From Escherichia coli (GTDB taxonomy: Bacteria; Pseudomonadota; Gammaproteobacteria; Enterobacterales; Enterobacteriaceae), in NCBI RefSeq assembly GCF_003334305.1, contig NZ_QOWS01000016.1: 64,000 bases of DNA; one strand, given 5' to 3'. Below the pieces are notes generated by a model. It worked only from the letters and a program-made list of their open reading frames with translations, was not told the origin of the DNA and made no database searches. Of this stretch, positions 1 through 11,586 are shown piece after piece (the stretch's first letter is position 1; each line of letters begins with the position of its first letter). A program made the position numbers and the translations under genes.

Positions 1-1712
1 CGCTGGCGCAACTGCGCCGCGAGCATTTCGGCTTTATTTTCCAGCGTTACCATTTACTTTCGCATTTAACCGCCGAGCAGAACGTTGAAGTACCCGCCGT
101 CTATGCCGGTCTTGAGCGGAAACAGCGGCTGCTTCGCGCCCAGGGGTTACTGCAACGACTGGGGCTGGAAGACCGTACAGAGTATTATCCGGCACAGCTT
201 TCGGGTGGTCAGCAACAGCGCGTCAGCATCGCGCGGGCATTGATGAACGGCGGTCAGGTAATTCTTGCCGATGAACCAACCGGCGCACTGGACAGCCATT
301 CTGGCGAAGAGGTGATGGCGATCCTGCATCAGCTGCGCGATCGCGGGCATACGGTGATTATCGTCACCCACGATCCGCAGGTCGCTGCTCAGGCCGAGCG
401 GGTGATCGAAATTCGCGACGGCGAAATTGTGCGCAATCCTCCCGCCATTGAAAAAGTGAATGTTGCTGGCGGGACGGAGCCTGTTGTCAACACGGTGTCT
501 GGCTGGCGGCAGTTTGTCAGCGGTTTTAACGAGGCGCTGACGATGGCATGGCGGGCGCTGGCAGCGAATAAAATGCGTACTTTACTGACCATGCTGGGGA
601 TTATTATCGGTATTGCGTCGGTGGTTTCCATTGTCGTGGTGGGTGACGCCGCCAAACAAATGGTGCTGGCGGATATTCGTTCTATTGGTACGAATACTAT
701 TGATGTCTATCCCGGGAAAGATTTTGGCGATGACGATCCGCAATATCAGCAGGCGCTGAAGTACGACGACTTAATCGCCATCCAAAAACAACCGTGGGTC
801 GCCTCAGCCACACCTGCCGTCTCGCAAAACCTGCGCCTGCGTTATAACAATGTTGATGTTGCTGCCAGTGCCAATGGCGTGAGCGGCGATTATTTTAATG
901 TCTATGGCATGACCTTCAGTGAAGGAAACACCTTTAATCAGGAGCAGCTGAACGGTCGTGCGCAGGTCGTGGTTCTCGACAGTAATACTCGCCGCCAGCT
1001 TTTCCCCCATAAAGCAGATGTGGTTGGCGAGGTGATTCTGGTCGGCAATATGCCCGCCAGAGTCATTGGTGTGGCGGAAGAAAAACAGTCGATGTTTGGT
1101 AGCAGTAAAGTGCTGCGTGTCTGGCTACCTTACAGCACGATGTCCGGGCGAGTTATGGGCCAGTCGTGGCTGAACTCCATTACTGTCAGGGTAAAAGAAG
1201 GATTTGACAGCGCCGAGGCGGAACAGCAACTCACGCGTTTACTTTCACTGCGCCACGGAAAGAAGGATTTCTTTACCTGGAACATGGACGGCGTCTTGAA
1301 AACTGTTGAAAAGACCACACGTACTTTACAACTGTTTCTGACGCTGGTGGCGGTGATTTCGCTGGTGGTGGGCGGTATTGGTGTAATGAATATTATGCTG
1401 GTGTCAGTGACCGAGCGGACGCGGGAAATTGGCATTCGCATGGCTGTAGGTGCGCGAGCAAGCGATGTTTTGCAACAGTTCCTGATCGAAGCCGTACTGG
1501 TTTGCCTGGTGGGTGGCGCGTTGGGAATAACTCTGTCACTGTTAATTGCTTTCACCTTGCAGCTTTTCTTACCCGGCTGGGAGATTGGTTTTTCACCGTT
1601 GGCACTGCTGCTGGCGTTTCTCTGCTCGACGGCCACCGGGATTTTATTTGGATGGTTACCCGCACGAAATGCGGCACGACTGGATCCAGTAGATGCTCTG
1701 GCACGAGAGTAA
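1..1712 (+). CDS. macB: macB, macrolide export ABC transporter ATPase/permease; 5' end truncated by window edge (codon phase starts at nt 3)
   Basis: Open frame runs from window start to stop at 1710-1712; translation shows ABC signature LSGGQQQR, Walker B ILADEPT and C-terminal FtsX-type TM segments. Confidence 0.93.
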   Translation, partial: LAQLRREHFGFIFQRYHLLSHLTAEQNVEVPAVYAGLERKQRLLRAQGLLQRLGLEDRTEYYPAQLSGGQQQRVSIARALMNGGQVILADEPTGALDSHSGEEVMAILHQLRDRGHTVIIVTHDPQVAAQAERVIEIRDGEIVRNPPAIEKVNVAGGTEPVVNTVSGWRQFVSGFNEALTMAWRALAANKMRTLLTMLGIIIGIASVVSIVVVGDAAKQMVLADIRSIGTNTIDVYPGKDFGDDDPQYQQALKYDDLIAIQKQPWVASATPAVSQNLRLRYNNVDVAASANGVSGDYFNVYGMTFSEGNTFNQEQLNGRAQVVVLDSNTRRQLFPHKADVVGEVILVGNMPARVIGVAEEKQSMFGSSKVLRVWLPYSTMSGRVMGQSWLNSITVRVKEGFDSAEAEQQLTRLLSLRHGKKDFFTWNMDGVLKTVEKTTRTLQLFLTLVAVISLVVGGIGVMNIMLVSVTERTREIGIRMAVGARASDVLQQFLIEAVLVCLVGGALGITLSLLIAFTLQLFLPGWEIGFSPLALLLAFLCSTATGILFGWLPARNAARLDPVDALARE

Positions 1713-1721
1713 TTTTTGAGA

Positions 1722-1753
1722 TAAAAATGCCAGCCGATCGGGCTGGCATTTTG
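1722..1753. terminator. Bidirectional terminator between convergent macB and cspD
   Basis: TGCCAGCC-GATCG-GGCTGGCA hairpin flanked by AAAAA (5') and TTTT (3'). Confidence 0.75.
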
Positions 1754-1784
1754 CCTTTAGGATGTACACAATGAGACAGAAGAG

Positions 1785-2009
1785 CTATGCGACTGCCGCT
1801 TCTACTTCGACGGGCACAATAACACTGGCGTGATTGCCTTTTGGCCCCTGGTGGACATCAAACTGAACGGATTGTCCAGCTTTTAGCGTTCTGTAACCAT
1901 CCATCTGAATGGTGGAATAATGAGCGAAAATATCTTCGCCGCCGCCTTCAGGGCAGATGAAACCAAACCCTTTGGCATTGTTGAACCACTTAACAGTACC
2001 CTTTTCCAT
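1785..2009 (-). CDS. cspD: cspD, cold-shock-domain stationary-phase protein (74 aa)
   Basis: ORF track 1785..2039; start trimmed to MEKGTVKWFNNAKGFGFI (RNP1 motif); ATG at 2007-2009 on minus strand. Confidence 0.93.
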   Translation of the reverse strand: MEKGTVKWFNNAKGFGFICPEGGGEDIFAHYSTIQMDGYRTLKAGQSVQFDVHQGPKGNHASVIVPVEVEAAVA

Positions 2010-2229
2010 GCTTCGACATCCTTCGCAAATCTTATACAAGTAAGATGGAATAAACCGGGGTCAGAGAGGGGGCTGTTCAAAACCTCGCCAACTCTAGAAA
2101 TACAATTTAGAGAATTAGGGCGAGCCGTCAAGCGTTTGACAGGGGCCAGGGGGCAGGTATGAATCAAAAATTTGAAGCAGTTAACGCTATTGACAGGAAT
2201 GTGACAGATGTCGCTGATGCCAACGATAG

Positions 2230-2247
2230 ATGATAGTTATCTATCAT
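2230..2247. promoter_or_regulatory. Inverted repeat in the cspD/clpS divergent region (possible operator)
   Basis: ATGATAG-ttat-CTATCAT, 7-bp perfect arms, about 85 bp upstream of the clpS ATG. Confidence 0.3.
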
Positions 2248-2331
2248 GTGGAGTAGATTGGTCAGGCAAATAAGCTCTTGTCAGCGGCAGGGCGTTCTGC
2301 CGATAACCGTAATCGAAGATGATAACTGACA

Positions 2332-2652
2332 ATGGGTAAAACGAACGACTGGCTGGACTTTGATCAACTGGCGGAAGAAAAAGTTCGCGACGCGCTAAAA
2401 CCGCCATCTATGTATAAAGTGATATTAGTCAATGATGATTACACTCCGATGGAGTTTGTTATTGACGTGTTACAAAAATTCTTTTCTTATGATGTAGAAC
2501 GTGCAACGCAATTGATGCTCGCTGTTCACTACCAGGGGAAGGCCATTTGCGGAGTCTTTACCGCCGAGGTTGCAGAAACCAAAGTGGCGATGGTGAACAA
2601 GTACGCGAGGGAGAATGAGCATCCATTGCTGTGTACGCTAGAAAAAGCCTGA
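2332..2652 (+). CDS. clpS: clpS, ClpA adaptor for N-degron substrates (106 aa)
   Basis: ORF 2332..2652; protein [43 protein letters not shown] is recognisable as ClpS. Confidence 0.95.
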
Positions 2653-2682
2653 ATGCAGGCATAAAAATTGGGGGAGGTGCCT

Positions 2683-4959
2683 ATGCTCAATCAAGAACTG
2701 GAACTCAGTTTAAATATGGCTTTCGCCAGAGCGCGCGAGCACCGTCATGAGTTTATGACCGTCGAGCACTTGTTACTGGCGCTGCTCAGTAACCCATCTG
2801 CCCGGGAGGCGCTGGAAGCGTGTTCTGTGGATTTGGTTGCGCTCCGTCAGGAACTGGAAGCCTTTATTGAACAAACCACACCCGTTCTGCCTGCCAGTGA
2901 AGAGGAGCGCGACACACAGCCGACGCTGAGTTTTCAGCGTGTACTGCAACGTGCGGTCTTCCATGTCCAATCCTCCGGTCGCAATGAGGTAACCGGTGCA
3001 AACGTTCTGGTCGCTATCTTTAGCGAACAGGAGTCGCAGGCGGCATATCTGTTGCGTAAACATGAAGTCAGCCGTCTCGATGTGGTGAACTTTATCTCTC
3101 ATGGCACGCGTAAAGACGAGCCGACACAGTCTTCTGATCCTGGCAGCCAGCCAAACAGCGAAGAACTAGCTGGTGGGGAGGAACGTATGGAGAATTTCAC
3201 GACGAACCTGAATCAGCTTGCGCGCGTGGGCGGAATCGACCCACTGATTGGTCGTGAGAAGGAGCTGGAGCGTGCTATTCAGGTTCTCTGCCGTCGCCGT
3301 AAAAACAACCCGCTGCTGGTGGGGGAATCTGGTGTCGGTAAAACCGCGATTGCGGAAGGTCTTGCCTGGCGAATTGTTCAGGGCGATGTGCCGGAAGTGA
3401 TGGCTGACTGTACGATTTACTCTCTCGATATCGGTTCTCTGTTAGCGGGCACTAAATATCGCGGCGACTTTGAAAAACGTTTTAAAGCGTTGCTCAAGCA
3501 ACTGGAGCAGGACACTAACAGCATCCTGTTTATTGATGAGATCCACACCATTATCGGTGCGGGGGCAGCGTCTGGTGGCCAGGTCGATGCGGCTAACCTG
3601 ATCAAACCGTTGCTCTCCAGCGGTAAAATTCGCGTAATTGGTTCGACAACCTATCAGGAGTTCAGCAACATTTTCGAGAAAGACCGTGCTCTGGCGCGTC
3701 GCTTCCAGAAAATTGATATTACTGAACCGTCGATCGAAGAAACTGTTCAAATCATCAATGGCCTGAAACCGAAGTATGAAGCGCACCACGACGTGCGTTA
3801 TACCGCAAAAGCGGTGCGTGCAGCGGTAGAGCTGGCGGTGAAATACATTAACGATCGTCATCTGCCGGATAAAGCCATTGACGTTATCGACGAAGCGGGC
3901 GCTCGCGCACGCCTGATGCCGGTAAGCAAACGCAAGAAAACCGTTAATGTGGCGGATATTGAGTCCGTGGTGGCCCGTATTGCGCGCATTCCAGAGAAGA
4001 GTGTTTCTCAGAGTGACCGCGATACCCTGAAAAACCTCGGCGATCGCCTGAAAATGCTGGTCTTCGGTCAGGATAAAGCCATTGAGGCGCTGACTGAAGC
4101 CATTAAGATGGCGCGTGCAGGTTTAGGTCACGAACATAAACCGGTTGGTTCGTTCCTGTTTGCCGGCCCTACCGGGGTCGGGAAAACAGAGGTGACGGTA
4201 CAGCTTTCGAAAGCGTTGGGCATTGAGCTGCTGCGCTTTGATATGTCCGAGTATATGGAACGCCATACCGTCAGCCGTCTGATTGGTGCGCCTCCGGGAT
4301 ACGTTGGTTTTGATCAGGGAGGTTTGCTGACTGATGCGGTCATCAAGCATCCACATGCGGTGCTGTTGCTGGACGAAATCGAGAAAGCGCATCCGGACGT
4401 GTTCAATATTCTGTTGCAGGTGATGGACAACGGTACGCTGACCGATAACAACGGACGCAAAGCGGACTTCCGTAACGTGGTGCTGGTGATGACCACCAAC
4501 GCCGGGGTACGTGAAACTGAGCGTAAATCCATTGGTCTTATCCACCAGGATAACAGCACCGATGCGATGGAGGAGATCAAGAAGATCTTTACACCGGAAT
4601 TCCGTAACCGTCTCGACAACATTATCTGGTTTGATCATCTGTCAACCGACGTGATCCATCAGGTGGTGGATAAATTCATCGTCGAGTTGCAGGTTCAGCT
4701 GGATCAGAAAGGTGTTTCTCTGGAAGTGAGCCAGGAAGCGCGTAACTGGCTGGCCGAGAAAGGTTACGACCGGGCAATGGGCGCACGTCCGATGGCGCGT
4801 GTCATCCAGGACAACCTGAAAAAACCGCTCGCCAACGAACTGCTGTTTGGTTCGCTGGTGGACGGCGGTCAGGTCACCGTCGCGCTGGATAAAGAGAAAA
4901 ATGAGCTGACTTACGGATTCCAGAGTGCACAAAAGCACAAGGCGGAAGCAGCGCATTAA
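2683..4959 (+). CDS. clpA: clpA, ATP-dependent Clp protease ATP-binding subunit (758 aa)
   Basis: ORF track 2668..4959; start trimmed to ATG 2683 ([10 protein letters not shown]) preceded by GGGGAGG SD; two AAA+ modules with Walker A GESGVGKT and GPTGVGKT. Confidence 0.96.
3176..3189 (+). promoter_or_regulatory. Internal ribosome-binding site plus in-frame ATG (Met169) inside clpA, consistent with internal initiation giving the shorter ClpA form
   Basis: GGAGG at 3176-3180 followed 6 nt later by in-frame ATG at 3187-3189 (…[11 protein letters not shown]…). Confidence 0.5.
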
Positions 4960-4984
4960 TCTGATTGTTAGGTAGGTTGGTCAA

Positions 4985-5020
4985 GTCCGTAATCTCGAAA
5001 GAGGTTACGGACTTTTTGTT
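4985..5020 (+). terminator. Rho-independent terminator downstream of clpA
   Basis: GTCCGTAATCTC-GAAA-GAGGTTACGGAC hairpin followed by TTTTTGTT. Confidence 0.75.
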
Positions 5021-5171
5021 TATGGGGTGGAGGAGGTTCAGACCCTTTTTTTAATGATGATGGTAAGTTGTTGATAATTAGTGCTGCGGGAAGGTAAGGA
5101 TAAAAAAGGGTGCTGCAGGAGAATGGGATGGTTTTGCTTTATTAACAACGGGCTAAACGTGTAGTATTTGA

Positions 5172-5259
5172 GTTCACTGCCGTACAGGCAGCTTAGAAAT
5201 CGACGGGGTGCGGTAAAACCTTTGCGAACGCGTTCACTGCCGTACAGACAGATAAAATG
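5172..5259 (+). CRISPR. Orphan type I-F CRISPR remnant: 2 repeats flanking one 32-nt spacer, no cas genes in window
   Basis: Repeat 1 5172-5199 GTTCACTGCCGTACAGGCAGCTTAGAAA (canonical I-F repeat); spacer 5200-5231; repeat 2 5232-5259 GTTCACTGCCGTACAGACAGATAAAATG (22/28 identical, degenerate terminal repeat). Confidence 0.85.
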
Positions 5260-5291
5260 CGAAAAAAAAGCTCGCACTTTCGTACGAGCTC
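5260..5291 (-). terminator. Terminator of serW tRNA gene
   Basis: Hairpin AGCTCGCAC-TTTC-GTACGAGCT at 5268-5291 with the A8 run 5260-5267 (U-tract on minus strand), immediately 3' of the tRNA. Confidence 0.6.
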
Positions 5292-5302
5292 TTCTTTAAA
5301 TA

Positions 5303-5390
5303 TGGCGGTGAGGGGGGGATTCGAACCCCCGATACGTTGCCGTATACACACTTTCCAGGCGTGCTCCTTCAGCCACTCGGACACCTCACC
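5303..5390 (-). tRNA. serW: tRNA-Ser (anticodon GGA), CCA encoded
   Basis: Minus-strand read GGTGAGGTGTCCGAGTGGCTGAAGGAGCACGCCTGGAAAGTG…GGTTCGAATCCCCCCCTCACCGCCA; long variable arm typical of tRNA-Ser. Confidence 0.95.
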
Positions 5391-5574
5391 AAATTGTTTT
5401 GCTACCAAACCTCATGGGTGGCAACGGGGCGCTACTATAGGGAGTTGGAGTAAAACGGTCAAGAAGAATTTTAATGATAATTATTGTTTGCTCATACTGT
5501 AAACAAGTTGTGCAGTATATCTACATCGAGACAAGTTACGGACTTATACTTCCAAAGTACTTCATACATATCAC

Positions 5575-5604
5575 AAAATAAAAAGGCCGGTTAAACCGAC
5601 CTTT
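5575..5604 (-). terminator. Terminator downstream of infA
   Basis: Hairpin GGCCGGTT-TAAA-CCGACC (with G-U pairs at RNA level) followed on minus strand by a U-tract (plus-strand AAAATAAAAA). Confidence 0.55.
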
Positions 5605-5643
5605 TACTCGTTCTTTCTCTTCGCCCATCAGGCGGTAAAACAA

Positions 5644-5865
<222 letters not shown>

Positions 5866-6146
5866 ATCCTCTGGGGTATCACTACCGTAATTTGAACCGG
5901 CAAGATAATGCCGAAGTTCTGTAAATAAGTAAAGATTTGCGCGCTAAATCGCAACAAACAGGTTCGGCACATTACTCCGAAAACACACGGCTAAGCCGCA
6001 CCAAAAGCGCAACGTATAAGGGAGCGGTGAGATAAACGATGGGCGTTACCTGACGCGAAAAATTCCTTATCGGCAGCGGGGTAATGAGCGTAACCAACTC
6101 TGCGACCGCAATTATAACACTCTGGGGAGAAATGTGCCGAAAACAT

Positions 6147-6851
6147 TCATTCTTGTGGTGAAAACAAGCATCGTGGTACCCAGAAATTATTCGGCAATCG
6201 TCCGAGGCGCATTTGATTGAGATAATTAAGGTAATCCCGGCGGGGAATTTCGCAGGCACCAAGCGATGCTGTGTGATCGTTAAGGACCTGGCAGTCGATA
6301 AGCTTACCGCCATGACCGATAAATTCCTCACAGAATACCAGAAGCGCCGTTTTAGACGCATTTTCCATCCGGCTGAACATGGACTCGCCACAAAATAGCG
6401 TTCCCTGGGCCACGCCGTACATACCGCCGACAAGCTCATCTTCACGCCAGACTTCAATGGAGTGGGCATGGCCGAGTTCGTGAAGGCGATGGTAGGCTTC
6501 GACCACGCCACGCGTGATCCAGGTTCCTTCTTCGCGATCGCTGGCACAGCCTTCAATGACCTGACCAAAAGCGTAATTCATCGTGACACGATAGGGCGAG
6601 CGTTTATGAAATCGCTTCATACTACGGCTGATATGCAGTGATTCTGGCCATAGCACCGCGCGGGGATCGGGCGACCACCAGAGGATGGGGTCGCCTGGAG
6701 AAAACCACGGAAAAATACCACGCTGGTAAGCCATTAACAGGCGCGCAGGGCTAAGATCGCCCCCAAGTGCCAGCAGGCCGTTAGGCTCACGTAATGCGCC
6801 TTCCGGGGAAGGGAAGGCTATTGAATGGCGAGAAAGCTGAACCAGGCGCAT
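6147..6851 (-). CDS. aat: aat, leucyl/phenylalanyl-tRNA--protein transferase (234 aa)
   Basis: ORF 6147..6851; protein [50 protein letters not shown]; synteny infA-aat-cydC. Confidence 0.93.
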
Positions 6852-6892
6852 GACCGCAAAACTCCACGCAAGTCGGATCGTTCAATAATAGC

Positions 6893-8614
6893 TTACAAAC
6901 CCTGCTTGAACTGGTAATAACGCCCCTGTCTGGCAAGCAGCTCTGCGTGAGTACCTTGCTCAATAATTTGCCCGTTGTCCATCACTATTATTTGTTGGAA
7001 ACGAGAGAGTCCGCGAAGTCGATGGGTGACCATTAACACCGTTTTCTCACGCATCATTTCTGCAAGCAATTCAAGGATCTGGCTTTCGGTTGTGGCATCT
7101 AAGCCTTCGGTAGGTTCATCCAGCAACACCAGTGGCGCATCATGTAACAGCGCACGGGCGATAGCCAGACGGCGCAGTTCACCACCGGAGAGCTGGCGTC
7201 CGCCTTCACCTAACCAACTGTTGAGACCTGCATCCTCGAGCAGCTTCTCCAGGCCAACGCGACGCAAGCTCTCCGCCAGAGCCTCATCACTACTGCCAGG
7301 CGAGGCGAGTAACAGATTATCACGCAGCGTGGCGCTAAACAGATGCACTCGCTGAGGAACAACGCTGATGGTCTGTCGTAGAGCCGCTTCATTCAGGCTG
7401 GCTATGGGGCTATCGTTAAGCAAAATCTCGCCCTGTTGCGGGTCCCAAGCGCGGGTCAGCAGTTGTAACAGTGTTGATTTGCCGCATCCGGTTCGCCCGA
7501 GAATCGCAATATGTTCCCCGGCGTTTACCTGAAGAGAAATCCCTTTAAGTGCCTGTTGGGATTGCTCCGGATAAGTGAACTGAACATCCCGTAATGTCAG
7601 CGAAACGCGATCGGCAACACGAGTTTGGGTATCAGGGAAGGTGACTTCCGGTTTTTGATCCGTTAAATCAGTGATCCGAACGGCAGAGGCAATGACTTGC
7701 CCCAGATGCTGAAATGCACCCGTTACTGGTGCCAGTGCTTCAAACGCGGCTAACGCGCAGAAGACAAACAGGGCAATTAACGCGCCGGGTTGAGCATTGC
7801 CGCCAACGCCGCCAGACGCCATCCACAGCATCAGGATCACCGCTAACGCGCCAATGAGTAGCATTATCGCTTGCGACAATGCGGTCAGTTCAGATTGACG
7901 GCGTTGCGCTTCCAGCCATTGAATTTCTGTATTCTCTAGTTGCGTGCGATAACGATCGCTGGCACCAAAAATGGTCAGCTCAGCTTGCCCTTGCAGCCAG
8001 GCCGTCAGTTGTTGGCGATACTGTCCGCGAAGATGAGTCAGATTTTGCCCGGTGCTTTTTCCCGCACGATAAAACAGCGGTGGCATCAGGAAAAGCGTCA
8101 GTAACATAATGCCGCCCAGCGTAAAGGCGAGGGTGAAATCAAGGAAACTTAACCCGATTGTCACCACCATAATCACCACAAAAGCGCCCACCAGCGGCGA
8201 GATAACGCGCAGATAAAGATGATCGAGCGTATCAACATCCGCCACCACGCGATTGAGCAATTCGCCCTGACGATAGCGCGCCAGTCCGGCAGGGGAGAGG
8301 GGCAGCAATTTGCTGAAGGTGTAAATGCGCAGATGCTGCAACACGCGGAAAGTCGCGTCGTGACTTACCAGACGTTCAAAATAACGCCCGGCAGTACGGG
8401 TGATTGCTGCGCCACGCACGCCCGCAGCGGGTAGCATATAGTTGAAGCTGTACAGTCCGGCAACCCCCGCAACCGCTGAGGCCGAGAGGAACCAGCCGGA
8501 AAGTGTCAACAGACCGATACTGGCGAGCAGCGTGACAATTGCCAGCACGATACCAAGACTTAACATCCATTTATGACGTTTATACAGTGCCAGATAGGGT
8601 AGCAAAGCGCGCAT
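6893..8614 (-). CDS. cydC: cydC, glutathione/cysteine ABC exporter subunit (573 aa)
   Basis: N-terminal 6-TM domain plus ABC ATPase (GRTGCGKST Walker A, LSGGE signature); stop of cydD abuts start. Confidence 0.95.
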   Translation of the reverse strand: MRALLPYLALYKRHKWMLSLGIVLAIVTLLASIGLLTLSGWFLSASAVAGVAGLYSFNYMLPAAGVRGAAITRTAGRYFERLVSHDATFRVLQHLRIYTFSKLLPLSPAGLARYRQGELLNRVVADVDTLDHLYLRVISPLVGAFVVIMVVTIGLSFLDFTLAFTLGGIMLLTLFLMPPLFYRAGKSTGQNLTHLRGQYRQQLTAWLQGQAELTIFGASDRYRTQLENTEIQWLEAQRRQSELTALSQAIMLLIGALAVILMLWMASGGVGGNAQPGALIALFVFCALAAFEALAPVTGAFQHLGQVIASAVRITDLTDQKPEVTFPDTQTRVADRVSLTLRDVQFTYPEQSQQALKGISLQVNAGEHIAILGRTGCGKSTLLQLLTRAWDPQQGEILLNDSPIASLNEAALRQTISVVPQRVHLFSATLRDNLLLASPGSSDEALAESLRRVGLEKLLEDAGLNSWLGEGGRQLSGGELRRLAIARALLHDAPLVLLDEPTEGLDATTESQILELLAEMMREKTVLMVTHRLRGLSRFQQIIVMDNGQIIEQGTHAELLARQGRYYQFKQGL

Positions 8615-10381
8615 TTAAATCTCCTCCTGACGATGGGCCAGTAATGTGGCGAATGGGCCACCAGCCACACTTAATTCCGCGTAACGTCCTTGCTCAATAA
8701 TCCGGCCATCCTGCATAACCCAAATGACATCCCAGTCAGCAAGATCTTCTAACTGGTGGGTGACCATTAACGTTGTCTGGCGCAGAGAGGCGGCATTCAG
8801 CGCCTCCATTACGCGCTGTTCACTGTGAGCATCAAGGCTGGCAGCGGGTTCATCCAACAGTAATAGCGAACAGGGATTTAGTAACGCACGGGCCACCGCC
8901 ACGCGCTGCGCCTGCCCCACGGAAAGGCGGGCAGCCTGGTCGCCAACAGGCGTATCAACGCCTTGTGGCAGGAGCGGTAGAAACTCGCTGACCCAGGCGT
9001 TATCCAGCGCTGCTTGTAATTCTTGTTCGCTGGCATCAGGTCGCGCCAGTAGTACGTTATCCCGCAATGTTGCTGCCGGTAATTGTGGGTTTTGCCCAAC
9101 CCAGGAGAGATGTTTACGCCATGATTCTGGTGATAAATCGCGTAATTCTATCCCGTTGATTCGTAATGATCCCTGATATGAAAGAAAACCAGAAAGCGCG
9201 TTCAGCAGTGAGCTTTTACCTGAACCGCTGCGACCAACCAACACTGCACGTTGGCCTGCTGGCAAAGTAAAGTTCAGCGGTCCGGCCAGCGTTTTACCTT
9301 CCGGCGACGTGATAAACAGATCCTCGGCCTCAATGGTCACCGGATCGGTCGATGCTAATTCCGCCTCACCGCGCTGCGGATGGGCGAGCGGGGTTTCCAT
9401 AAACGTTTTCAGACTGTCAGCTGCACCAACAGCCTGGGCTTTAGCATGATAAAACGTACCGAGATCGCGCAATGGCTGGAAAAACTCTGGCGCAAGGATC
9501 AGGGCCAGAAAACCCGCAGCCAGCGTCACACCGGTATCGTAGTGACCAAAATCCAGCTCGCCGAGATAGGAAAAACCAAAGTAGACCGCCACCAGAGCAA
9601 TTGACAGCGAGGTAAAAAATTCGAGAATGCCGGAGGATAAAAACGCCAGCCGTAGCACTTCCATTGTCCGTTGGCGGAAATCTTCCGAAGCAGAACGAAT
9701 ACTTTCAATTTCAGCTTCACCACGACCAAAAATACGCAATGTTTCCATGCCGCGCAGGCGATCGAGGAAATGCCCACTTAAGCGAGCAAGAGCGAGAAAG
9801 TTACGCCGGTTAGCATCGGCAGCCCCCATCCCAACCAGCGCCATAAACAACGGAATTAACGGTGCTGTGCCCAGCAGAATGAGCGCCGCAGCCCAGTTAG
9901 AGGGGAAGATCGCCACCACAATCAGCAACGGCACCGACACTGCCAGCGCCATTTGCGGCAGGTAGCGTGCATAGTAATCATGCATATCGTCAATTTGCTC
10001 GAGTACCAACGTCGCCCAGCTCCCCGCAGGTTTACCCTGAATCCACGCTGGCCCTGCTTGTTGCAGACGGTCGAGAACCTGACGGCGGATGGCAAAGCGG
10101 ATATGCTGCCCGGCGTGATAACCCACCCGTTCGCGTAACCAGACCACCCATGCGCGCAGTACAAAGGTCAGAACCAGTAACGTAAAGGGAAGCAGCAGGG
10201 CTTCACGGGGAATATTCTCCATAATCATATGTTGCAGAATTCGCGCCATGAACCAGGCCTGGGCAATGATCAATATGCCGCTTACAAAGCCCAGCAGACG
10301 AGAAATATTCAGCCAACGTTGGGAGATGACGCTTTGCTGTTTTAACCAGCGGGTTAACTCTTTTTGACGGGATTTATTCAT
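8615..10381 (-). CDS. cydD: cydD, glutathione/cysteine ABC exporter subunit (588 aa)
   Basis: TM domain plus ABC ATPase ([14 protein letters not shown]); directly upstream of cydC on same strand. Confidence 0.95.
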   Translation of the reverse strand: MNKSRQKELTRWLKQQSVISQRWLNISRLLGFVSGILIIAQAWFMARILQHMIMENIPREALLLPFTLLVLTFVLRAWVVWLRERVGYHAGQHIRFAIRRQVLDRLQQAGPAWIQGKPAGSWATLVLEQIDDMHDYYARYLPQMALAVSVPLLIVVAIFPSNWAAALILLGTAPLIPLFMALVGMGAADANRRNFLALARLSGHFLDRLRGMETLRIFGRGEAEIESIRSASEDFRQRTMEVLRLAFLSSGILEFFTSLSIALVAVYFGFSYLGELDFGHYDTGVTLAAGFLALILAPEFFQPLRDLGTFYHAKAQAVGAADSLKTFMETPLAHPQRGEAELASTDPVTIEAEDLFITSPEGKTLAGPLNFTLPAGQRAVLVGRSGSGKSSLLNALSGFLSYQGSLRINGIELRDLSPESWRKHLSWVGQNPQLPAATLRDNVLLARPDASEQELQAALDNAWVSEFLPLLPQGVDTPVGDQAARLSVGQAQRVAVARALLNPCSLLLLDEPAASLDAHSEQRVMEALNAASLRQTTLMVTHQLEDLADWDVIWVMQDGRIIEQGRYAELSVAGGPFATLLAHRQEEI

Positions 10382-10433
10382 TGCACGCTTAGCAGGTGAG
10401 TTATCAGAATTATTTGCAGAGCAATGTTACAAC

Positions 10434-10476
10434 GGGGAAAAAATAAAGGCGACCCATAGTCGCATGGTGTCGCCTT
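10434..10476 (-). terminator. Terminator downstream of trxB
   Basis: Perfect 8-bp stem AAGGCGAC…GTCGCCTT (10446-10476) with plus-strand AAAAAAATAA immediately 5' (U-tract on minus strand). Confidence 0.65.
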
Positions 10477-10503
10477 CTTTACTTTTGTTACTGATTTGTA
10501 AAA

Positions 10504-11586
<1,083 letters not shown>

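Follow-up and report, generated by a model that had tools for sequence, protein, structure and literature searches.

Tyrosine recombinases as a rule act on inverted core-type sites arranged around an overlap of 6–8 bp, with two protomers bound and strand exchange taking place across the overlap. The heterobivalent att sites of lambda, HP1 and the P4-type systems have inverted half-sites in both attB and attP and direct repeats on the P and P′ arms, and the integrases that use them combine an arm-binding N-terminal domain with a tyrosine-recombinase catalytic domain. The att site found between cspD and clpS in Escherichia coli and the integrase of the phage-inducible chromosomal islands (PICIs, a family of phage-parasitic elements) that occupy it resemble these systems in their half-sites, arm repeats and integrase domains. 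The arm sites are common to the related PICI integrases examined here while the cores differ. The tRNA genes targeted by other integrases also differ from the target of these PICIs, which is an intergenic regulatory sequence.

The cspD-clpS att site has already been published as a PICI docking site. EcCIIHE3034 and EcCI18098 were both listed with the att site core ATGATAGTTAT and with cspD-clpS as the att gene (Fillol-Salom et al. 2018, ISME J, Table S1, PMC6092414), and this core is identical to positions 2230–2240 of the window (the whole 64-kb stretch of DNA analysed) at the same locus. The published description gives only an 11 bp repeat, and the arm-type repeats and the overlap of the site with a putative OxyR operator and with the yljB stop codon are further additions of the present analysis, in which the IHE3034 island was re-read with both of its junctions. 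The int-attP of EcCICFT073 was the only one tested for integration in that study (PMC6092414), and no recombination assay for an EcCIIHE3034-type integrase or for the cspD-clpS site was found in the literature.

The region of the window concerned contains the E. coli genes macB, cspD (minus strand) and clpS-clpA, and the initial annotation, in naming cspD and clpS as the genes flanking the site, agrees with the annotation of the genome. It had also described a perfect 7 bp dyad with a 4 bp spacer about 85 bp upstream of clpS. This was found exactly as described, with the arms ATGATAG (2230–2236) and CTATCAT (2241–2247) forming perfect reverse complements around the spacer TTAT (ATGATAGTTATCTATCAT at 2230–2247) and the dyad ending 85 bp before the start of clpS at 2332. 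The additional GATAG motif reported on the 5′ side of the dyad is located at 2225–2229 and is repeated at 2232–2236, and the nested dyads ATAGAT-N7-ATCTAT and GATAGA-N9-TCTATC arise from this repeat. The features of the region are collected in Table 1.

Table 1. Features at and around the cspD-clpS att site, in window coordinates
Feature	Position	Strand	Remarks
Dyad, attB core (B-O-B′)	2230..2247		half-sites ATGATA(G) and (C)TATCAT around central GTTATC
Published PICI att site core ATGATAGTTAT	2230..2240		identical in attB, attP, attL and attR
Predicted OxyR operator of clpSA, ACAGATGTCGCTGAT-gccaacg-ATAGATGATAGTTAT	2204..2240		consensus match 15/20
Promoter-proximal OxyR/LysR-type half-site, ATAG-N7-TTAT	2226..2240		9/10 to ATAGnTnnnAnCTAT; overlaps left arm and spacer
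Right arm CTATCAT	2241..2247		completes the symmetry only in Escherichia; outside the OxyR-like site
yljB, 24-aa small ORF	2159..2233	+	RefSeq annotation
clpS, first gene of the OxyR-induced clpSA operon	2332..2652	+	downstream of the site
cspD, divergent neighbour	1785..2009	-	promoter -35 at 2131-2126, -10 at 2109-2104, TSS near 2095

The TGA stop codon of yljB (2231–2233) lies inside the left arm of the dyad and is followed in frame by TAG. The alignment described below indicated that an ORF is retained in Citrobacter, and a Salmonella homologue, STsORF27, has been reported (PMC10117436). When the region was scanned for promoters and terminators, the cspD promoter was the sole promoter called and no terminator was found at the dyad. 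The cspD transcription start site (TSS) has been placed at base 921,899 in NC_000913.2, and a plus-strand TSS is found far upstream, at approximately window position 1779 (both Kim 2012 supplement).

The dyad is real, yet by itself it is not significant. Nine perfect 7-N4-7 dyads were found in the 64-kb window, where first-order Markov shuffles gave 4.4 ± 1.7, and the 7 bp dyads with any spacer of 0–10 bp numbered 85 against 51 ± 8 in the shuffles. By chance alone, a 320 bp intergenic region would hold about 0.26 dyads of this kind, so the one upstream of clpS is not statistically remarkable. A 40-mer centred on the dyad was present in 5378 of 5426 E. coli genomes, but as the whole cspD-clpS intergenic region is 98–100 % identical within the species, the invariance of the dyad there is uninformative.

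The 320 bp intergenic region was used as the query in a megablast search of 5426 complete E. coli genomes. It was present in all of them, and in 369 the match was interrupted at query positions of approximately 219–235, which correspond to the dyad. Queries specific for the junctions detected attL in 316 and attR in 365 of the 5426 genomes. Approximately 6–7 % of complete E. coli genomes carry a PICI of 10.5–11.5 kb inserted exactly at the dyad. Four of these islands were read from end to end, and each includes genes for an integrase, an AlpA-like HTH protein, an Icd-like protein, DUF4222, a primase, SSB, capsid and TerS. In BH100, a 10.8 kb PICI lies between yljB and clpS, and in this island the integrase is a tyrosine integrase, the primase is of the P4 type, the capsid gene is a protease/capsid fusion and TerS is the small terminase. 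The islands found in IHE3034, UPEC129 and strain 3150 (10.5–11.5 kb) have cargo that is partly different from that in BH100. The islands sampled may have descended from few integration events.

In all four genomes, the dyad was found copied at both island junctions, as ATGATAGTTATtTATCAT at attL and ATGATAGTTATCTATCAT at attR. Written with its variable last base, attL is ATGATAGTTATTTATCA(T/G) in the four islands. In BH100, CGATAG is followed by ATGATAGTTATtTATCAg and then TTAGTGTTCG at attL, while at attR the sequence ATGATAGTTATCTATCAT is found between GCTATAA and GTGGAG. In IHE3034, UPEC129 and strain 3150, attL is ATGATAGTTATTTATCAT and attR is again ATGATAGTTATCTATCAT. At attL, yljB was intact in each case. 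The island would bring its own copy of the common segment, leaving yljB complete at attL and the dyad together with the clpS-proximal DNA complete at attR. As the island carries this copy, integration preserves yljB.

A predicted attP with the configuration P arm-ATGATAGTTATTTATCAT-P′ arm was found in a circular record of 10 790 bp (accession number NZ_CP148328.1, strain Z1323HEC0475), which was deposited as a plasmid. The circle may be an assembly product, as the chromosome in the same assembly is split at the att site. The same P-core-P′ junction was found in an IMG/VR contig (L096), which may also have been shaped by assembly; this contig runs via attR into clpS, indicating a tandem or mixed assembly, and was not accepted as a clean excised circle. 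The other 23 IMG/VR matches to the 17-mer were unrelated AT-rich phage sequences.

Comparison of attB with attP revealed inverted 6 bp half-sites around a 6 bp centre in both, namely ATGATA and TATCAT around GTTATC in attB, and ATGATA and TATCA(T/G) around GTTATT in attP. Even with TATCAG as the P′ half-site, as in one type of island, a symmetry of 5–6 bp is kept in the element. The two sites are identical at 17 of 18 bp, the sole difference within the 18 bp being C in attB and T in attP at the position equivalent to 2241. Every one of the four islands has the T at attL and the C at attR. Two domains were recognised in the integrase, a P4-type arm-binding domain (PF13356, Arm-DNA-bind_3, 4.6e-16) and a tyrosine-recombinase catalytic domain (PF00589, Phage_integrase, 5.5e-18), and the protein was assigned to the PHROG 1 integrase family. 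In the reconstructed attP, each arm includes two tandem copies of GGTGTAGTTAAT. Several TGTTCG repeats are also present in this attP, and all of these repeats are conserved between island types. Integrases that are approximately 76 % identical were found with the arm repeats in common but with a different core, ACATTATTAATATCGTGA. This pairing of the same arm repeats with a different core indicates that, as far as the sequences reveal, arm recognition is shared among the related integrases while core specificity has diverged.

The 18 bp dyad is therefore very probably the attB core for the heterobivalent tyrosine integrase of EcCIIHE3034-type PICIs. The core-binding domains of two integrase protomers would occupy the inverted ATGATA and TATCAT half-sites, and the N-terminal arm-binding domains would bridge from there to the repeats on the attP arms. 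At 2241, the T of attP is always found in attL and the C of attB in attR, and strands are therefore predicted to be exchanged in the central region, either inside ATGATAGTTAT or at its right edge. A symmetric 6 bp overlap, GTTAT(C/T), would contain the C/T mismatch, and is awkward to reconcile with the uniform T in attL and C in attR. That the site is stable enough to serve as a target probably has its reason in the left two-thirds, which would form the promoter-proximal half of an OxyR operator and also hold the stop codon of yljB. The initial annotation had proposed that the dyad has the geometry of an operator for a dimeric regulator. A two-fold symmetric site for protein recognition is retained in the present reading, but the protein is the tyrosine integrase of a mobile element and not a host transcription factor.

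It is unlikely that the symmetry is a coincidence, with only the left part of the dyad (the OxyR half-site and the yljB stop codon) of importance and the integrase in need of no more than 11–17 bp of identity. Three observations would fit such an explanation: the published core consists of ATGATAGTTAT alone, conservation of the right arm stops at Escherichia, and dyads of this kind do arise by chance. However, attP independently has the inverted ATGATA and TATCAT (with TATCAG in place of the latter in one type of island), attB and attP match at 17 of the 18 bp with the right arm included, and an inverted pair of core-type sites around a 6–8 bp overlap is the usual arrangement for tyrosine recombinases. 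Moreover, in the data set the islands were found at this site only where the right arm exists, in E. coli genomes and enterobacterial contigs.

A scar left by an island is a still less probable origin for the right arm. In this scenario, an island integrated long ago at an ancestral sequence resembling CTAACAT or CTGACAT and was later excised with the crossover displaced, leaving the P′-type TATCAT behind, and the island would itself have made the perfect dyad that is now used. The right-arm TATCAT is the P′ half-site of attP and differs from all of the orthologues outside Escherichia. In addition, the empty site of two E. coli genomes carries the attP allele, T, at 2241, which would demonstrate that attP-type bases can be present in an unoccupied site. 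The T in these two empty sites could be either a SNP or an excision footprint, and a single C-to-T SNP explains the two genomes equally well. Most empty sites differ from attP in having C at 2241, and it is usually the integrase that adapts to the host site and not the host site to the integrase.

Conservation was examined in an alignment of the cspD-clpS intergenic regions of E. albertii, nine other Enterobacteriaceae and four more distant Enterobacterales. Among the nine Enterobacteriaceae outside Escherichia, the mean identity was 1.00 in the spacer (2237–2240), 0.87 in the left arm (2230–2236) and 0.65 in the right arm (2241–2247), and the average for the whole intergenic region was 0.70. 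The segment that corresponds to the proximal OxyR half-site (2226–2240) had a mean identity of 0.94 versus the intergenic 0.70, and ATAGATGATAGTTATCT was almost invariant within the Enterobacteriaceae. In the same nine species, positions 2243–2247 ranged from 0 to 0.7 identical. The full right arm was retained only in E. coli and E. albertii, and was absent in Citrobacter, Leclercia, Enterobacter and the others aligned. Complementarity between the arms outside Escherichia was 2–6 of 7 (mean about 4 of 7 in the nine relatives), with one compensatory-looking change in Leclercia. The centre of the conserved block differs from that of the dyad, and the block reaches 5′ of it, taking in the tandem GATAG of the initial annotation along with the left arm and the spacer. 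As the right arm does not exceed the regional average in conservation and the complementarity is 2–6 of 7, the dyad symmetry is, on the evidence of this alignment, not a conserved host feature. Phylogenetic footprinting, which the initial annotation had suggested as a check on the dyad, thus did not bear out its conservation outside Escherichia, an outcome that the annotation had itself named as counting against an operator.

These results make it very unlikely that the 7-4-7 dyad is a host operator at which a dimeric transcription factor controls cspD, clpS or both. The perfect symmetry, the location between divergent promoters, the invariance of the dyad within E. coli, the average of about four complementary positions in the nine relatives and the change in Leclercia would be in keeping with an operator. 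However, the first of these is of a kind expected by chance, the third is a property of the entire region, and the right arm is at the regional average outside Escherichia with as few as two complementary positions. The conserved block is also off-centre and extends in the 5′ direction, and the fits to the consensus sequences of known regulators are poor (Fur 11/19, TrpR 11/18, FNR 8/10, LexA 10/20, and others).

It is extremely unlikely that the dyad serves as an RNA hairpin just downstream of yljB in a yljB-clpS mRNA, with an effect on translation, stability or termination. The region may be transcribed from the plus-strand TSS near 1779 and a fold is predicted (−7.9 kcal/mol, z = −3.2 versus shuffles), but it has no U-tract, was not called as a terminator and has no Rfam match, other genera do not keep the stem (a single change at most looks compensatory), and the z-score, which is circular for a perfect dyad, falls to −1.7 in a 142-nt context. 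The hairpin is thermodynamically possible but not conserved, and was rejected. A search of 1600–2800 with Rfam at permissive thresholds gave no match at the dyad, and only a sub-threshold match to the cspA thermoregulator on cspD. A GC-rich stem-loop at 2285–2302 (CGGCAG-N6-CTGCCG) was also considered and set aside, with no consensus structure or covariation found across 10 genera.

A scan against known E. coli regulators had also been suggested, and approximately 35 operator consensus sequences were compared with the site in a crude screen. As binders of the dyad itself, Fur, TrpR, FNR, LexA, ArcA, Zur, MntR, MqsA and others were unconvincing. PhoB matched the dyad at 13 of 18 positions, but the published PhoB ChIP motif is instead found at 2189–2206, where it neighbours the dyad and overlaps the distal half of the OxyR-like site. 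A Nac-type match, ATA-N9-TAT, is merely the same LysR-type box as the OxyR half-site. It was OxyR that stood out after this screen. The scan was therefore unproductive with respect to operators of the 7-4-7 type, and what it did identify, an OxyR half-site with a 9/10 match, has a different geometry.

The known OxyR operators upstream of oxyS, katG, ahpC and dsbG have the form ATAGnTnnnAnCTAT-N7-ATAGnTnnnAnCTAT. The half-site at 2226–2240 was not equalled at any of 300 random loci, and in a scan of the 64-kb window with the 37 bp OxyR consensus, which has four ATAG-type elements spaced 10–11 bp apart, 2204–2240 was the only position that scored 15/20, a frequency of 1.6e-5 per position. About 0.005 such matches would be expected in the 320 bp region for one regulator chosen a priori. 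For calibration, known OxyR sites were taken from MG1655 and scored in the same scan. The oxyS/oxyR and dsbG sites both scored 16/20, those of katG and the dps region 14/20 and that of ahpC 13/20, and the candidate upstream of clpS, at 15/20, is comparable. Like the known operators, it is located upstream of an OxyR-induced gene and is conserved in related genera. Differences from them are that the clpS site is predicted from sequence, that its distal half is weak and that it overlaps CRP-like and PhoB-bound sequence.

Eight orthologues, ranging from E. albertii to Enterobacter Bisph1, have the candidate operator in register, with scores of 12–15/20. For Superficieibacter, RIT691 and Mangrovibacter, the highest-scoring match to the OxyR consensus lies in a different register of which the proximal half is still a part, and in RIT691 a 16-nt insertion separates the two operator halves. 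The proximal half matched at 8–9 of 10 positions in all of the Enterobacteriaceae orthologues examined. Only background scores (11 or less) were obtained for Serratia, Yersinia, Rahnella and Pectobacterium. The distal half-site is weak (6/10), and the bases conserved there (TGTGA...TCGCG) look like a CRP site, for which the OxyR motif does not account.

That clpSA is a target of OxyR is already known. The operon is OxyR-induced, 4.1-fold in Hpx- cells (Imlay laboratory; PMC8115020, PMC10751367), and a PclpS reporter is up with H2O2 (PMC7617757). Under the name yljA, clpS belonged to the original set of OxyR array genes, with no site mapped for it in RegulonDB (PMC4207228). The distance from the edge of the OxyR motif to the TSS is −38 in oxyS and −37 in ahpC, such that the site abuts the −35 element, and this geometry predicts a TSS for clpS near 2275–2285. 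In the TSS data of Kim 2012, obtained under non-inducing conditions, no TSS was found near the dyad or at 2275–2285. Two candidate −10 hexamers for clpS were picked out by eye, TAAGCT at 2271–2276, which would place the motif edge at −42 to −43, and TAGATT at 2254–2259, which would place it at about −26. No clpS promoter could be fixed from the −10 and −35 hexamers judged by eye on the alignment. Taken together, the match and its conservation suggest that 2204–2240 is probably the OxyR operator that activates clpSA under H2O2 stress. The overlap between this putative operator and the att site is a modest new observation.

Where an island is present, clpS is separated from its upstream region by approximately 10.5–11.5 kb. 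At attR, island DNA takes the place of the distal half-site and the OxyR score in the native register is 11–12/20, while at attL a 15/20 site is found that faces the integrase gene of the island. We propose, tentatively, that the PICI att core lies inside the clpSA OxyR operator and that insertion splits the putative operator, such that induction of ClpS and ClpA by H2O2 may be lost or altered in about 7 % of E. coli; this is possible, though doubtful. ClpS and ClpA have been linked to the control of the iron pool under oxidative stress (Imlay lab).

No new class of element is described here, as the dyad is a documented PICI site and clpSA a documented OxyR target. What is added is that the att site is an 18 bp dyad present in attB and attP and not merely an 11 bp repeat, and that its arm-type sites can be identified. 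The island targets a stretch that is held constant by host function, in the form of the probable OxyR half-site and the yljB stop codon, and this parallels the targeting of tRNA genes. Insertion should cut clpSA off from most of its OxyR site, which is a new and testable prediction on the host stress response. If the operator is indeed split, the carriers affected would include ExPEC such as IHE3034, and the choice of target site by the satellite would have a direct regulatory cost or coupling. Conversely, occupancy of the site by OxyR could then modulate the integration or excision of the island or the expression of int.

For EcCIDI14, Fillol-Salom et al. 2018 (PMC6092414, Table S1) give CGGTGTAGTTAATGGTGTAGTTAATT as the att site core. 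An identical sequence forms the arm-type tandem repeat on each of the two arms of the cspD-clpS islands, as seen in the attP arms of two of the DNA records compared (L003 and L084). The EcCIDI14 sequence is probably an arm repeat and not the real core of the crossover. Cores of the yejM type, two copies of TTTGTAGTTATACG, look similar in kind.

For strain Z1323HEC0475, the deposited form of the island is a circular plasmid of 10,790 bp (accession number NZ_CP148328.1, bases 1–10790) whose first base lies exactly at the attP core, and the att site is the end of both the chromosome record (NZ_CP148326.1) and a 42-kb record (NZ_CP148327.1) of this strain. This reflects either a mixture of reads from the excised and the integrated form or a break of the assembly at the att site. 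The IMG/VR contig IMGVR_UViG_3300019373_000108 starts with a P-core-P' (attP-type) junction and its end runs via attR into clpS, a layout that indicates tandem islands or circular and integrated forms collapsed together. In two chicken isolates (NZ_CP063487.1 and NZ_CP172816.1), the empty cspD-clpS site carries the attP allele, ATGATAGTTATTTATCAT, which is either a SNP or a footprint left by an excision event whose crossover was shifted.

The features found in and around the cspD-clpS intergenic region are listed in the table. The PhoB site for cspD/clpS determined by ChIP-seq, published as TGTCACATTCCTGTCAAT, is the reverse complement of window positions 2189-2206 and adjoins the OxyR-like site; the same study found no clear PhoB-dependent expression change (PMC10294691). 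Within the intergenic region, conservation is highest in TTTGAAGCAGTTAACGCTATT, a block that is nearly invariant even in Yersinia, Serratia and Rahnella, and a second block, TGTGA-N6-TCGCT/G, is kept across the Enterobacteriaceae. The two blocks resemble CRP sites for cspD, located at approximately -84 and -114 from the cspD TSS. cspD is reported to be under CRP control.

Features in and around the cspD-clpS intergenic region (window coordinates)
Feature	Position	Strand	Remark
TSS of Kim et al. 2012	~1779	+	NC_000913.2 921,583
cspD mRNA, Rfam match	1721-2114	-	cspA thermoregulator, sub-threshold
yljB	2159-2233	+	24 aa
CRP-like block 1	2171-2191		TTTGAAGCAGTTAACGCTATT
PhoB site	2189-2206		ChIP-seq
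CRP-like block 2	2200-2215		TGTGA-N6-TCGCT/G
GC-rich inverted repeat	2285-2302		CGGCAG-N6-CTGCCG, ~30 nt upstream of clpS

The small gene yljB lies wholly inside this regulatory region, where it overlaps the OxyR-like site, the PhoB site and the CRP-like blocks; it ends within the dyad in tandem in-frame stops (TGA-TAG). Citrobacter retains an ORF, and a homologue has been reported from Salmonella (PMC10117436). Much of the nucleotide conservation of yljB may come from the overlapping DNA sites and not from the peptide. The GC-rich inverted repeat showed neither a consensus structure nor covariation in an RNAalifold analysis across 10 genera. The cspA thermoregulator match on the cspD mRNA scores 41.6 bits, where the gathering score is 78, and is most likely a result of csp paralogy and not a sign of a thermosensor.

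Kim et al. 2012 attribute the TSS at 921,583 to clpS, with a leader of 553 nt. It lies directly after the macB terminator and is antisense to all of cspD, and the transcript could be antisense or read-through, also carrying yljB. In Enterobacter asburiae INSAq146, ~55 bp are missing between the conserved block GTAGATT and the start of clpS, and the intergenic region upstream of clpS is 267 bp, compared to ~320–330 bp elsewhere. Because of this shorter distance, the end of the OxyR-like site is only 36 nt from the clpS ATG, which bears on the true location of the clpS promoter.
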